Of a stretch of 32,000 nucleotides of DNA, positions 8,656-13,767 are shown piece after piece. The notes below the pieces were generated by a model. That model was not told the DNA's origin and did not search any database. It worked only from the letters and a program-made list of their open reading frames with translations. A program made the translations under genes and the position numbers. The stretch spans positions 600,001 to 632,000 of the forward strand of contig CP013062.1 in the NCBI GenBank assembly GCA_001430755.1, read 5' to 3'. The first letter of the stretch is position 1. Every line of letters begins with the position of its first letter. The stretch is from Candidatus Peribacter riflensis. GTDB taxonomy: Bacteria > Patescibacteriota > Gracilibacteria > Peribacterales > Peribacteraceae.

Positions 8656-9016
8656 AGTTGGAAATGGAAGTGAAATACCTGTGCAGCACGGGAAAAACCT
8701 CCTGAAGCGTTGCTCCGCGGAGGGTGTGCTGCCGGCTACATTCAGTTCAGTCAGCCCGGCCCCTCTGCGGAGGAGATACGGATACGACGCGCGATGGTGA
8801 GGAGGAGGATCATGGGAACAGCGGAAGAACCCCTGCGGGAGAGAGATCCGGTTGAGAGGTGACTTGCGTTTGAAACGTGAGCAGAGACCGTCACCTCTTT
8901 ACGAGGCGCGGCGACGGAGACAGATTTGAAGGAATGATGGCTGCACGATGGGCTTATCGTAGAGGTTTTTCGCGAAGTGTCAATATCCGCATCTTTCGGG
9001 TGGTGATTGCAGTCTT

Positions 9017-9093
9017 TGGTCGGGGCGACAGGACTTGAACCTGCGACCTCTTGCACCCCATGCAAGCGTTCTAGCCAACTGAACTACGCCCCG
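9017..9093 (-). tRNA. tRNA-Pro, anticodon GGG, CCA encoded
   Basis: Hand-folded cloverleaf: acceptor CGGGGCG/CGCCCCG, D arm GTTC-AGTTGGCTA-GAAC, anticodon arm CTTGC-ATGGGGT-GCAAG, T arm GCAGG-TTCAAGT-CCTGT, then discriminator A and CCA. Confidence 0.93.
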
Positions 9094-9129
9094 ACGCGCA
9101 AACTATAGCAGTGATACCATGCGTGCTGC

Positions 9130-9396
9130 ATGGAAAATCCCGAATCTCAGATCGCCGCCATCGTGGAACGCAACAAGCGTGTCGAAACCGACAAAGCGTG
9201 GGAGGTGAGCTGGACGCGGCGGCTGCTCATCACCGCCCTCACCTATAGTGTCGCCGTGCTTTTTCTCTGGACAATCGAGAACCCGGGCTTCTGGCTCAAC
9301 GCAGCCGTCCCGGCCTTAGGCTACCTGCTCTCCACCCTCTCGCTCCCGTGGGTGAAGCAGTGGTGGATACGGCAGCATCTGGAATCCAGTCAGTAG
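9130..9396 (+). CDS. small conserved-looking 2-TM membrane protein
   Basis: ATG start. The N-terminus IVERNKRVETDKAWEVSWTRR is amphipathic and is followed by two hydrophobic helices. It is the only plus-strand ORF here and no competing frame exists. Confidence 0.7.
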   Translation: MENPESQIAAIVERNKRVETDKAWEVSWTRRLLITALTYSVAVLFLWTIENPGFWLNAAVPALGYLLSTLSLPWVKQWWIRQHLESSQ

Positions 9397-9412
9397 GGAA
9401 CAAAACAGAACA

Positions 9413-9442
9413 GAAAACAAAAAAAACTGCTCATAGCAGCTG
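9413..9442 (-). terminator. candidate intrinsic terminator, either the end of a long eno 3' UTR or of an unannotated minus-strand RNA
   Basis: The minus strand reads AGCTGCT-atg-AGCAGTT followed by TTTTTTTGTTTTCTG. The stem is short and AT-rich, and the hairpin lies about 185 nt downstream of the eno stop. Confidence 0.4.
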
Positions 9443-9494
9443 TGAGCAACGATAAGTAAATCGGCCTTTAACGGAAGGAGGTTTACTGTTAGGA

Positions 9495-9548
9495 GGGTAA
9501 AGGGGGTGTCGGGGGGCTTAGGGAACCGAACAAGGTGCCCTAGCCCCC
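9495..9548 (+). other. G-quadruplex-type motif overlapping a strong hairpin
   Basis: GGG-taaa-GGGGG-tgtc-GGGGGG-ctta-GGG spans 9495-9523. GGGGGCT(T)AGGG at 9512-9523 can pair with CCCTAGCCCCC at 9538-9548. Confidence 0.4.
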
Positions 9549-9625
9549 TGACGAATGAATCAGATTCATCTCTCGTTCAGCGAGAAAACAGATCCCTTCT
9601 TGTCGCGACAAAGGTGGAAAGAGTC

Positions 9626-10924
9626 TTAGAAAGGAGAAACATACTTCGCCTTACCTCCCAATTCCTCCTCAATGCGCAGAAGCTGGTTGTACTTACACAC
9701 CCGATCCGTGCGCGAGGCGGAGCCCGTCTTGATCTGCCCCGTGCCGAGGGCCACGGCGAGATCTGCAATGAACGTATCTTCCGTCTCGCCGCTGCGGTGG
9801 CTGATGATCGTCCTCCAGCCGTTCTTCTGCGCCAGCTGAACGGCATCGACCGTTTCACTCACTGTTCCGATTTGATTGAGCTTGATGAGAATGGCATTGG
9901 CCGCCTTCTCTGCAATCGCCTTCTTGAGCCGCTCGACATTCGTCACCAGCAGATCATCACCGACGAGCTGAATCTTTTTTCCAAGCATCTTCTGCATCTC
10001 TTTGAACCCATCCCAGTCATCTTCACTGTGACTGTCTTCGATGCTCACGAGCGGGTAGCGATCGCAGAGAGCGGCATAGAACTGCGTGAGCTCCTGTGAG
10101 GAGAACTTCTTTCCATCTACGGTATAGACGCCTTTGGTACAGAACTCGGACGCAGCCGCATCGATAGCCAGTTTCACCGTGCCTCCGTATCCCGCCTCAT
10201 CGATGGCCTTGGCCAGAAAGCCAAACGCTTCCGCACTATCCTTCACACGCGGCGCAAACCCCCCCTCATCCCCCACGGCCGTGATGTGCCCCGCGTCGTG
10301 CAGGAGCTTCTTTAAGGTCATGAAGACCTCCACCCCCGCCCGAAGCGCATCGGAGAAGCGGGAAAACCCGACGGGCACGATCATGCACTCCTGCAGCGAG
10401 AGGCCGCTGTCTGCATGCTTGCCGCCGTTCATCACGTTCATCATCGGCACCGGCAAGAGCCCCGTCTCCTTCACCGAGAATTGCGTGGCGAGCGACCGGT
10501 AGAGGGGCAGTTTTTCGCTGACTGCACGCGCGCGGCACACCGCCATCGAAACCCCGAGAATGGCATTGGCACCCAGCTTGTTTTTCATATCCGTTCCGTC
10601 GAGGGCAATGAGCGCCCCGTCTATGATCCGCTGGTCTGCGACGTCCTTCCCGACCATGGCCGTCGCAATGGTTCCATTCACATGGGTCACCGCCTTCAGA
10701 ACGGATTTCCCTCCGTAGAGCTTCTTGTCTCCATCCCGGAGTTCCAGCGCCTCGTGCGAGCCGGTGGATGCGCCCGAGGGCACGGCGGCACGTCCGAACG
10801 ACCCATCGGAGAGCAGGCAATCCACCTCAACCGTGGGCGTCCCGCGGGAGTCGAGGATCTGTCTGGCGTGGAGAGATTGAATAGTCGGCACAGGCAAAAG
10901 GGAAAGATGCGAGCATCCTAACAC
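9626..10924 (-). CDS. eno: enolase
   Basis: [33 protein letters not shown] and full-length similarity to enolase as judged by eye. The track start is the GTG at 10924. GTG at 10891 or TTG at 10897 would give the usual short N-terminus, so the start is uncertain. Confidence 0.97.
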
Positions 10925-10941
10925 AACCCCCTACCCATCAT

Positions 10942-11000
10942 CCTAACCCTAACCCTAACCCTATCCCTAACCCTAACCCTAACCCTATCCCTAACCCTAT
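10942..11000 (-). repeat. tandem hexamer array (TTAGGG/ATAGGG)x10, read on the minus strand
   Basis: The plus strand reads cctaa CCCTAA CCCTAA CCCTAT CCCTAA CCCTAA CCCTAA CCCTAT CCCTAA CCCTAT. The higher-order unit is 24 bp, (CCCTAA)3CCCTAT. Confidence 0.95.
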
Positions 11001-11857
11001 CCCCTCCTCCGTCTCGCCCTATCGTGCAACACCCCCGTGTACCCCGCGAGCATCATCAGGGCGAACACGGCAGCCTCCGGACCCGATGAAGGCAGCTTCG
11101 TAGGCTGGGTCTTCGCTTCTTTAAGCTCCGTACCCTCCGATGTCGGCTGGAGGGACGGGACGAGAGCGCGCATGGAACTGGAGGACGTGCTCTTCAGCCG
11201 CTCCTCCCGGGCCTGCTTGCGGCGATCTTCGGCCTGGCGCAGCTTTACGCGCCACTCCTCCTCCTTGGCATCGCTGGAGGCGCTCAGGTTCTGCTCCGTC
11301 GGCAGGCGCCCTGCGAGTTTGATCCCCAGAAACTCCTTTCCCTCCAGTTCCTGAAGCCACTCCCCTCCCCACAGAACCGATGCGAGTTCACGATCCCAGT
11401 GCGTGGCACGCTCGCTGGCCAGCGCCCCGCCCACGAACGGAATGAAGGCGGCAAGCAGAAGCACGACGCGCGTCAGGCGGCGGCGCACCACCTGCAGGCA
11501 GTAACTGATGAGTAGAATGAAAGCGATGGTGACGGCGGGCAGCGTCCACCCCCACGTGTACCAGCCGATGAATGAATACGCCCGCGGCACCTCGAGCGCC
11601 ACGATCTCGACTCCGAGCCACAAGAGGAGCATCAATGCAGGAAACCAGTGCAACAGACGGAAGGCGTGATCCGCGCGGCGGCGGCGAAAGAGCGCGAAGA
11701 GCGCGAGGGGATAGAGAATGGAGAGCACGAAAAGGATCGTCCAGGGCACCGCCCCCGCCGGCAGATCAGGCAGCGTGGTGAGCAGAAGCCCCGTGAGGAG
11801 GATGACGGCGCCGAGAAGGAAAACGAGAAAAGTTTCCGTAGCGTGCTTGAGAGGCAT
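10997..11857 (-). CDS. membrane protein of unknown function (N-terminal TM bundle, charged C-terminal half)
   Basis: ATG at 11857. About five hydrophobic helices are followed by a Lys/Glu/Arg-rich region. The stop TAG (10999-10997) lies inside the last hexamer repeat. Confidence 0.8.
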   Translation of the reverse strand: MPLKHATETFLVFLLGAVILLTGLLLTTLPDLPAGAVPWTILFVLSILYPLALFALFRRRRADHAFRLLHWFPALMLLLWLGVEIVALEVPRAYSFIGWYTWGWTLPAVTIAFILLISYCLQVVRRRLTRVVLLLAAFIPFVGGALASERATHWDRELASVLWGGEWLQELEGKEFLGIKLAGRLPTEQNLSASSDAKEEEWRVKLRQAEDRRKQAREERLKSTSSSSMRALVPSLQPTSEGTELKEAKTQPTKLPSSGPEAAVFALMMLAGYTGVLHDRARRRRG

Positions 11858-11952
11858 AAAAGGGGTTGATACTCTCGAACGAGAGCGACCCTGTCAAGTT
11901 CGTTGAACACCAAAGGAGAACGAAGGCGGATTGGCGATTTTATGATTGAATG

Positions 11953-12045
11953 ATTTGCGATGTACATCCCTGAAAAGACAGAGCCTGACATGAAATTCTG
12001 CTTGTTTTCGACAAATCGCAAATCGTACATCCGTCAATCGCAAAT
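11953..12045. repeat. short repeated motif set: ATTTGCGAT once, its complement ATCGCAAAT twice, and GTACATCC twice
   Basis: ATTTGCGAT lies at 11953-11961. ATCGCAAAT lies at 12015-12023 and 12037-12045, 22 nt apart. GTACATCC lies at 11962-11969 and 12025-12032. All sit in the spacer upstream of the 10997..11857 gene. Confidence 0.6.
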
Positions 12046-12047
12046 TG

Positions 12048-12461
12048 TTACTTCTTGCGCTTCGGCAAGTACCGGTCCCGCGGATCGCTCGAAACCTCCG
12101 TCGGGAGCTTCTCGTAGTATCGCATCCGGAAGAAGCGCACCTGAATAACGATGTACAGCGCGAGCAGAATGCCCCACAGCACCCACCAGAGACGCATAGC
12201 GAGGAAGCCGATGCTCTCCACGCGTGAGACGACGAAGACTAAGCCCGTGATCCCAAACCAGAACAGGGCCGACGGCCATGAGCGGCTGAGCTTCTTGAAG
12301 ACCGGATTCTGCATGTGCCTGCGCCAGAACCGCAGGACGAACGAGAGCAGGATGAAGAGAACACAGACCGCAAGGAGCAGACGGATGTTGGTGCTGCCGT
12401 AGTAGGCATTGCCGGGATTCGGCCAGACCAGGTAGATGAAGAAGGATTGGAGTGCGGCCAT
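12048..12461 (-). CDS. small polytopic membrane protein
   Basis: The track ORF 12048..12728 has an implausible Ser/Cys-rich first 89 aa that overlap the next gene. The ATG at 12461 gives MAALQSFFIYLVWPNPG... with 3-4 TM helices and a basic C-terminus. Confidence 0.75.
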   Translation of the reverse strand: MAALQSFFIYLVWPNPGNAYYGSTNIRLLLAVCVLFILLSFVLRFWRRHMQNPVFKKLSRSWPSALFWFGITGLVFVVSRVESIGFLAMRLWWVLWGILLALYIVIQVRFFRMRYYEKLPTEVSSDPRDRYLPKRKK

Positions 12462-12477
12462 AGGGGAGGTGGGAATA

Positions 12478-12828
12478 CTACTCCTCCGAAGAGGATTTTT
12501 TGGAGGAATGGTTTTTACCGAGGAGTTTGTCGGCGAGCGCACGGACGAGGGCATCCTGTTCGCGCTGACGGATGGTCCGCGCCGGCCGGAGGAGGAGGTA
12601 CAGGAAAAAGCCGACCACGGGGAGCAGTGCAACGAGCACGATGCAGAGCGCCATGTACCAGAAGGAATGTGTGCGCAGCAGAATGTCGCGGGTGGTGAAG
12701 AACACGAGGAAGATGATGAGCGCCCCACCGAGCAAAAGCGCCCCCTGAATCATCCGCAGAACAGGATCATCCGAAAGAAACAGAAGAAAAGGGTCGAATA
12801 AAGACTGAAACGAAGTGAAGAGCTGCAT
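12478..12828 (-). CDS. small 2-TM membrane protein (resembles the PLD-nuclease N-terminal type motif LPVVGFFLYLLLRP)
   Basis: ATG at 12828. Two TM helices are followed by a charged tail. The family assignment rests on motif resemblance only. Confidence 0.65.
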   Translation of the reverse strand: MQLFTSFQSLFDPFLLFLSDDPVLRMIQGALLLGGALIIFLVFFTTRDILLRTHSFWYMALCIVLVALLPVVGFFLYLLLRPARTIRQREQDALVRALADKLLGKNHSSKKSSSEE

Positions 12829-12843
12829 AGGAGCAATGGGGAT

Positions 12844-13767
12844 CTAAAGATGAGGATACCGTCGCCGGTGGACGACAACGTACACGACGGTGGCGAGAAG
12901 TGCCAGCACCGCGAGGAACTGGCTGAACCGGAGCTCATGCGTTTCGAGCGGAAGCTGAGAGCGCAGGAGCGCATAGCCGCCGAACACGACGAGCAGGGCA
13001 CCCTCGAACAGGAAGAGCGAACGGCGCGAGAGCATGAGCTCAATGACCGCGAAGACGCCCAGGCTCACGAAGAGCGAGAGGAGGATGACGAAATCCAGCG
13101 TGGTGGCGAACACCGGAATTGTGAAATCCCCGCGAAAGTACTCCAGGATGAATGTGCCGATGCTGGCACAGATGATGCCAATGAGCGTCTCGGTTCCTGC
13201 CCGTTTGCCGTACTTGCGCAGCACCAGGAGCAGGAACGTGAGGAAGAGCGAAAAGATGGCATAGTAGAGTTGCACCGGATGAATCGGAACGGCGTAGCGC
13301 ACGCTGATCGACTCGTACGTCACCCCCCAGAAGACATCGGTGGGCTTGCCGTAGGAGTGCCCGGCGAAGAAGAGACCGAGCCAGCTGAACGTGGACCCGA
13401 GCATCGTGGCCGGCAGCAGCACGTCCAGCCACTGGAGGAAGGTGGCGCGATGGTTGCGCGTGGCCCAGAAGAGAACAATGCCGATGCCGATGGCTCCGCC
13501 CAGAAAGCTGAATCCCCCATCCCACACGATGAAGATGCGCAAGAGATCGTTCCAGTACACACGATACTGGGCCACGATGGCGAAGAAGCGGCCTCCGGCG
13601 AGGAACGCGAGCAGGTAGAGCCACGCGTGCTCACGGAAGTGCTGCAGTGAGAGATTGGCCGCACTCGCCAGCCTCAAGAAGAATTCCGTCGAGACCCAGA
13701 TGCCGATGAGCAGGAAGACGACGGAGGTCCAGATGAGAAACGGACCGAAGGGGAACGCCTGAAACAT
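12844..13767 (-). CDS. lgt: prolipoprotein diacylglyceryl transferase
   Basis: IFIVWDGGFSFLGGAIG, HPVQLYYAIFSL and ILEYFRGDF match the conserved Lgt blocks (E. coli VWDGGMSFHGG, HPSQLYE, EFFRQPD). I prefer the ATG at 13767. The track start is the GTG at 13791. Confidence 0.92.
   Translation of the reverse strand: MFQAFPFGPFLIWTSVVFLLIGIWVSTEFFLRLASAANLSLQHFREHAWLYLLAFLAGGRFFAIVAQYRVYWNDLLRIFIVWDGGFSFLGGAIGIGIVLFWATRNHRATFLQWLDVLLPATMLGSTFSWLGLFFAGHSYGKPTDVFWGVTYESISVRYAVPIHPVQLYYAIFSLFLTFLLLVLRKYGKRAGTETLIGIICASIGTFILEYFRGDFTIPVFATTLDFVILLSLFVSLGVFAVIELMLSRRSLFLFEGALLVVFGGYALLRSQLPLETHELRFSQFLAVLALLATVVYVVVHRRRYPHL

Follow-up and report, generated by a model that had tools for sequence, protein, structure and literature searches.

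The closest described class to the hexamer array found upstream of the enolase gene (eno) of the groundwater bacterium Candidatus Peribacter riflensis is that of the G-rich simple sequence repeats known from Xanthomonas (GGGAATC) and Nostoc (GGGGA(C/T)T), which form G-quadruplexes (G4s) and whose function is unknown (Rehm et al., PLoS One 2015, PMC4692102). Other known elements resemble the array in part. Eukaryotic telomeric and interstitial (TTAGGG)n tracts share its unit sequence and its quadruplex potential, but the eno array spans only 60 bp, is internal to a circular bacterial chromosome in which no reverse transcriptase was found, and belongs to a Peribacter family in which variant units are frequent. 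The contingency-locus repeats of Neisseria and Haemophilus are likewise slippage-prone tandem units near a promoter or gene boundary, whereas the 6-nt unit at eno keeps the reading frame, its neighbours have housekeeping roles, and no variation in length is seen in three assemblies. Intrinsic terminators and REP/BIME palindromes share the position after a stop codon, and some members of the Peribacter family pair with an inverted copy; unlike these elements, the eno copy has neither an inverted partner nor a U tract, and the family lacks conserved flanks.

The array occupies positions 10941–11000 of the window (the whole 32,000-nt stretch of DNA that was analysed, positions 600,001 to 632,000 of contig CP013062.1) and is G-rich on the minus strand. 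Read along this strand from 11000 to 10941, it consists of nine NTAGGG hexamers (ATAGGG or TTAGGG) and a terminal TTAGGA, preceded by a GGGG tract and followed by a degenerate G-rich tail that contains another two G tracts (10940–10925, minus strand). Tandem Repeats Finder returned, for window positions 10942–11003, a period of 6 nt in 10.3 copies (score 103) and a period of 24 nt in 2.6 copies (97% matches, score 117), in agreement with the ten tandem hexamers and 24-bp higher-order unit noted in the initial annotation; the longer period indicates that a block of four units, one of which carried a T-to-A change, was duplicated as a whole. A two-unit 12-mer with at most one mismatch matched nine times at the array, whereas 100 shuffled sequences gave 0.03 matches on average. 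Both flanking genes lie on the minus strand, so that the G-rich strand is indeed the sense strand of each, and the array begins inside the TAG stop codon of the upstream gene (10999–10997, minus strand), which falls within the first unit, as had also been claimed. Array and spacer are identical in three independent assemblies, namely two ENA metagenome assemblies and one NCBI draft, and an apparent sequence variant in one of them proved to be a run of N, a scaffolding gap located elsewhere in the draft and the only difference among the three. This identity excludes a chimeric join, an event that the initial annotation had named as capable of overturning its description, and the syntenic flanks agree.

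The upstream gene (10997–11857, minus strand) encodes a 286-residue membrane protein with no hit in the Pfam profile search. Its C-terminus, in which an LPSSG motif precedes a hydrophobic region and then an Arg-rich tail, resembles a sortase sorting signal and is conserved among Peribacteraceae loci; a sortase A is mentioned in the P. riflensis genome paper (Anantharaman et al. 2016). On the far side of this gene, the spacer at 11947–12029 follows the stop codon of the preceding gene and holds a hairpin with TTTGCGA-type heptamer arms (15 nt, 87% complementary), after which a promoter-like stretch with TTGACA is found just before the 286-residue gene.

The enolase gene itself (9626–10891, minus strand; Pfam Enolase_N and Enolase_C) encodes 421 residues from a GTG codon at 10891–10889. 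The initial annotation had taken a GTG at 10924 as the start, with the array filling nearly the whole gap between the genes and lying in the eno leader. Comparison with relatives leads to a different picture. The start at GTG 10891 (MPTIQ...) is conserved in 25 of 25 Peribacteraceae loci examined, in all of which the product begins M-[PST]-x-I at this point, and 37 blocks of the public collection contain the exact 421-residue product. With this start the gap measures 105 nt, of which the array fills about 60 nt. The leader of eno is pyrimidine-rich and has no Shine-Dalgarno motif, a feature that eno shares with many P. riflensis genes. A simple consensus scan for a –35/–10 pair returned nothing in the eno upstream region. 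An extended –10-like motif, TGTTAGGAT (10915–10923, minus strand), lies 23 nt before the start codon and is a probable core promoter of eno, since the pattern [TC]GnTAnnAT recurs upstream of eno in 15 of the 25 loci, at the identical 23-nt distance in the closest relatives. Judged from this conservation, eno would have a promoter of its own between the array and the start codon, and the array, which ends 20 bp upstream of the putative –10 hexamer, would span about –33 to –92 relative to the transcription start expected from the motif. Because the conserved motif separates the array from the true start codon, the array is placed upstream of the likely eno promoter and probably outside the leader of eno; RNA containing it would arise only by read-through from the upstream gene.

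As a canonical G4 motif, the array is predicted by ViennaRNA, with quadruplex energies included, to form two tandem three-layer G4s, the minimum free energy falling from –28.6 to –52.6 kcal/mol for RNA and from –4.1 to –32.0 kcal/mol for DNA. These values lend model-based support to the quadruplex potential originally proposed, and folding in vivo would be in keeping with them. The array lacks the combination of GC-rich hairpin and U tract that characterizes an intrinsic terminator: no terminator-like site was found between 10700 and 11200, and the array has neither a U tract nor an inverted partner.

Although it was initially treated as a singular feature, the array belongs to a family of about 30 arrays of at least three units in this genome, with further members in congeners. 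The P. riflensis genome is a single closed contig of 1,248,026 bp with 58.5% GC; for closed Ca. Peribacter riflensis genomes the genome paper gives 1,248,071 ± 217 bp and 58.5% GC (Anantharaman et al. 2016). A three-unit 18-mer with at most two mismatches matches it 105 times, against none for the backwards control, and perfect N[TG]AGGG runs of at least three units number 31, whereas the backwards unit never exceeds two in a row. Runs of three to ten units occur 13, 4, 2, 6, 2, 1, 2 and 1 times, respectively, with the eno array one of the three longest. Units often depart from the standard sequence (A/G/C-TAGGG, TGAGGG), G-rich arrays commonly show a multi-unit period of 12, 18 or 24 bp, and no conserved flanks accompany them. 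The repeat was found in seven of eight congeneric genomes, two of which gave 31 and 24 matches, and in 12 of 24 Peribacteraceae genomes, against one of 16 other families of the class. Literature searches returned no description of such arrays in Peribacteria or other candidate-phyla bacteria, and in the genome paper the word 'repeat' is used only for other matters (Anantharaman et al. 2016). The family is thus new to the literature for the Peribacter lineage, its kind being already known from Xanthomonas and Nostoc. Tandem families with other units of 6–8 nt, such as CCGAGTTC, CCGAAGT, CTTAATT and AGGACTA, are also abundant in P. riflensis; they often pair with an inverted copy to give hairpins, and can replace one another in orthologous spacers of congeners. 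An inverted partner lies nearby for 25 of 94 mostly intergenic tandem arrays, against 8 of 176 genic ones.

The resemblance to the Xanthomonas and Nostoc repeats extends from the unit to its distribution. In both cases a short unit (6–9 nt with a run of at least three G, here NTAGGG repeated ten times) stands in tandem, and copies are dispersed over the chromosome far above chance (105 against 0 and 31 against 0 in the two counts above), mostly outside genes. The flanks of 29 P. riflensis arrays were read individually, the genome-wide tally resting on crude ORF-scoring gene calls; approximately 22 of the 29 lie outside verified genes, in a genome of which intergenic DNA makes up about 14%. Some 12 arrays lie immediately before a start codon and have C-rich sense strands. 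About ten come after a stop codon and have G-rich sense strands; of these, five have an inverted C-rich partner with which they form a hairpin. Five or six arrays run in frame inside real genes (G000:C1 203754, 344948, 677948, 1062809, 119127 and 550665), all with the C-rich strand as sense, in hosts comprising GidB/RsmG, RsmB/F, a GT4 glycosyltransferase, Sua5/YrdC (TsaC/YrdC), a PMT_2 membrane protein and probably a C39-like peptidase. In none of the 29 does G-rich sense sequence immediately precede a start codon. The eno array conforms to this pattern as a post-stop copy with G-rich sense strand. The Xanthomonas and Nostoc repeats likewise have G-rich sense after stop codons and C-rich sense before start codons, a non-coding bias in which G-rich sense is rare or avoided within ORFs, and some convergent pairs able to form hairpins. 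The Peribacter repeat differs from them in its 6-nt rather than 7-nt unit, identical to that of vertebrate telomeres, in its host, a 1.25-Mb genome of the candidate phyla radiation, in showing no preference for four units in P. riflensis, in having several copies in frame inside conserved enzymes, and in numbering about 30 loci instead of hundreds. Purifying selection is the likely source of the genome-wide orientation pattern, and a positional rule common to Peribacter, Xanthomonas and Nostoc, members of three distant phyla, suggests a general constraint on G-rich repeats around genes. One case of the start-codon position is a six-unit array with C-rich sense strand (G000:C1:7751–7786) that fills the entire rplB-rpsS spacer and supplies, with its last unit, the ATG of rpsS, leaving no room for a Shine-Dalgarno sequence.

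At eno, related genomes retain a much shorter version of the repeat. Three degenerate units stand in a spacer of 55–56 nt in three congeneric genomes (G002, G003 and G008) and in metagenome contig L089, and a fourth genome (G004) has two units; the degenerate tail of the P. riflensis array (10925–10940) is the counterpart of this two- to three-unit seed (loci L009–L011, L089 and L091–L094), and the position of the upstream stop codon is kept within one codon in congeners. Since these five congeneric sequences have only the seed, the ten-unit array is, by sequence comparison, an expansion specific to P. riflensis of a seed that includes the stop codon. The variable copy number anticipated in the initial annotation accordingly holds between species, with two to three units against ten, and does not extend to the three P. 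riflensis assemblies, in which the number of units is constant. In two further genomes (G005 and G007) unrelated hairpins take the place of the repeat, and the more distant genera have either short, structureless spacers or strong hairpins of other tandem units; the hairpins that some Peribacteraceae have at this same post-stop position have z-scores from –3 to –6. Roughly half of the eno spacers in Peribacteraceae are short and devoid of any structured element, from which it follows that no element is required there; this weakens the notion of an obligatory post-stop structure at the site. Scans of metagenomes with flank patterns yielded one related contig and nothing further. Turnover elsewhere in the genome was followed at 23 array-bearing sites of genomes G001 and G007, holding 26 arrays. 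For about 14 of these the orthologous P. riflensis spacer or gene has the same repeat in a different copy number, for eight the counterpart spacer has a different short tandem family, and the remainder correspond to remnants or could not be placed. Array positions are thus often kept between species even where the repeat family changes, as in Xanthomonas and Nostoc, where intergenic sites are kept between related species with length and sequence much changed; a structured or repeated element could therefore be wanted at those boundaries.

The explanation preferred here, at a probability of about 65%, is that the array is a tolerated product of replication slippage with no dedicated regulatory role. 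A short TAGGG seed starting in the stop codon of the upstream gene, a putative sortase substrate, would have expanded locally in P. riflensis, slippage adding single units as well as multi-unit blocks, as part of a class that numbers about 30 G-rich hexamer arrays across the chromosome and recurs in most congeners. The orientation of such arrays would be filtered by selection, with G-rich sense sequence disfavoured at translation starts and within ORFs, and the eno copy would persist because it lies after a stop codon and upstream of the putative eno core promoter, in what would be the 3' untranslated region of the upstream gene and not the eno leader. There the G-rich strand would be present in sense RNA and in non-template DNA, both predicted to be capable of two tandem quadruplexes, and any effect would be as a structured 3' end or as a roadblock for read-through from the upstream gene. 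The lack of a reverse transcriptase match (RVT_1) in the genome counts in favour of slippage and led to rejection of a telomerase-like origin. Counting against it are the frequent conservation of array positions, the absence of the termination factor Rho and the post-stop hairpin in the adjacent spacer. Should the explanation hold, the locus would show how microsatellites resembling vertebrate telomeres accumulate in a very small genome, densely packed with genes, from a lineage not yet in culture, and would caution annotators and designers of contamination filters that bacteria can have genuine TTAGGG runs of their own.

Among the alternatives, the one that survives best, unlikely as it is, holds that the array is a functional 3'-end element, whose post-stop RNA quadruplexes would cause RNA polymerase to pause or terminate, or would shield the upstream mRNA from 3' exonucleases, and would insulate the eno promoter from read-through, a task that tandem-repeat hairpins would have in other spacers. 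Rho (PF07497) was not found in this closed, 98%-complete genome, so that structure-based 3'-end signals should matter, and the two predicted tandem G4s lower the computed minimum free energy of the RNA (–28.6 to –52.6 kcal/mol). Half of the approximately ten post-stop G-rich arrays have the inverted partner needed for a hairpin, strong hairpins stand at the same post-stop position in other Peribacteraceae, and array positions are often conserved between species. The heptamer hairpin after the stop codon in the neighbouring spacer adds to this, since the eno array occupies a position where hairpins sit elsewhere. Yet the closest congeners make do with two to three units and about half of the relatives with no structure in the eno spacer, while the array itself has no U tract or terminator-like site. 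Moreover, the repeat occurs inside operons (rplB-rpsS) and in frame within genes, where termination would be harmful. G4-based 3'-end formation has been proposed in bacteria, but a literature search yielded neither a demonstration of it nor any case of G4-dependent termination in bacteria in vivo. Were post-stop arrays to act as RNA or DNA quadruplex signals in this Rho-less genome, they would offer a natural case of this mode of 3'-end formation.

A broader and somewhat more doubtful version of this idea concerns the family as a whole. The Rho-less Peribacteraceae might systematically furnish their gene boundaries with elements of short tandem units, either inverted-pair hairpins or G-rich quadruplex arrays, as 3'-end or insulator signals, of which the eno array would be the quadruplex version. 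The conservation of sites whose unit family is repeatedly replaced would then point to a process, specific to the lineage, by which tandem repeats are formed anew at gene ends.

It is improbable that the array instead tunes the eno promoter, in the manner of a contingency locus, through a non-template G4 or a unit number that alters promoter strength over the –35/UP-element zone. The distance of 20 bp between the end of the array and the putative –10 hexamer is compatible with such an effect, but extended –10 promoters usually need no –35 element. The single unit number across three independent assemblies and the housekeeping nature of enolase also speak against it. Promoter-region G4s can activate or inhibit depending on their location, as Rehm et al. 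state in citing their own work in E. coli, but the same authors found no regulatory role for the analogous repeats (Rehm et al. 2015, PMC4692102).

Slighter still is the chance that the arrays bind a sequence-specific protein, such as a factor that organises the chromosome or an orienting factor of the FtsK type, and that their strand is set by the direction of replication. Single N[TG]AGGG hexamers do favour the leading strand (62%), two-unit runs do so 38 to 9, and 23 of 29 arrays have their G-rich sequence on that strand if arrays are defined tolerantly. Perfect runs of at least three units, however, divide 19 to 12, which does not differ from the single-hexamer baseline (p = 1.0), so that a leading-strand bias of the arrays as such was discarded, and no candidate protein was identified. 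The gene calls made for this analysis show no leading-strand bias of genes (48%).

Finally, the reading of the array as an assembly artefact, a eukaryotic contaminant or a true telomere or telomerase product, for which only the identity of the unit with the vertebrate telomere repeat speaks, is already refuted as far as assemblies can show, since three independent assemblies agree apart from the N gap elsewhere, the same gene pair flanks the spacer in many Peribacteraceae (which upholds the initial argument against contamination), the array is internal to the circularised 1.25-Mb chromosome at 610.9 kb, no reverse transcriptase gene was found and backwards-pattern controls gave zero. The Pif1 G4 helicase, too, was not found in the genome. 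An Rfam search of window positions 9000–13000 gave no match at the array or in the eno spacer, its only hit being a tRNA gene downstream of eno (9020–9093, minus strand; RF00005, 63.8 bits).
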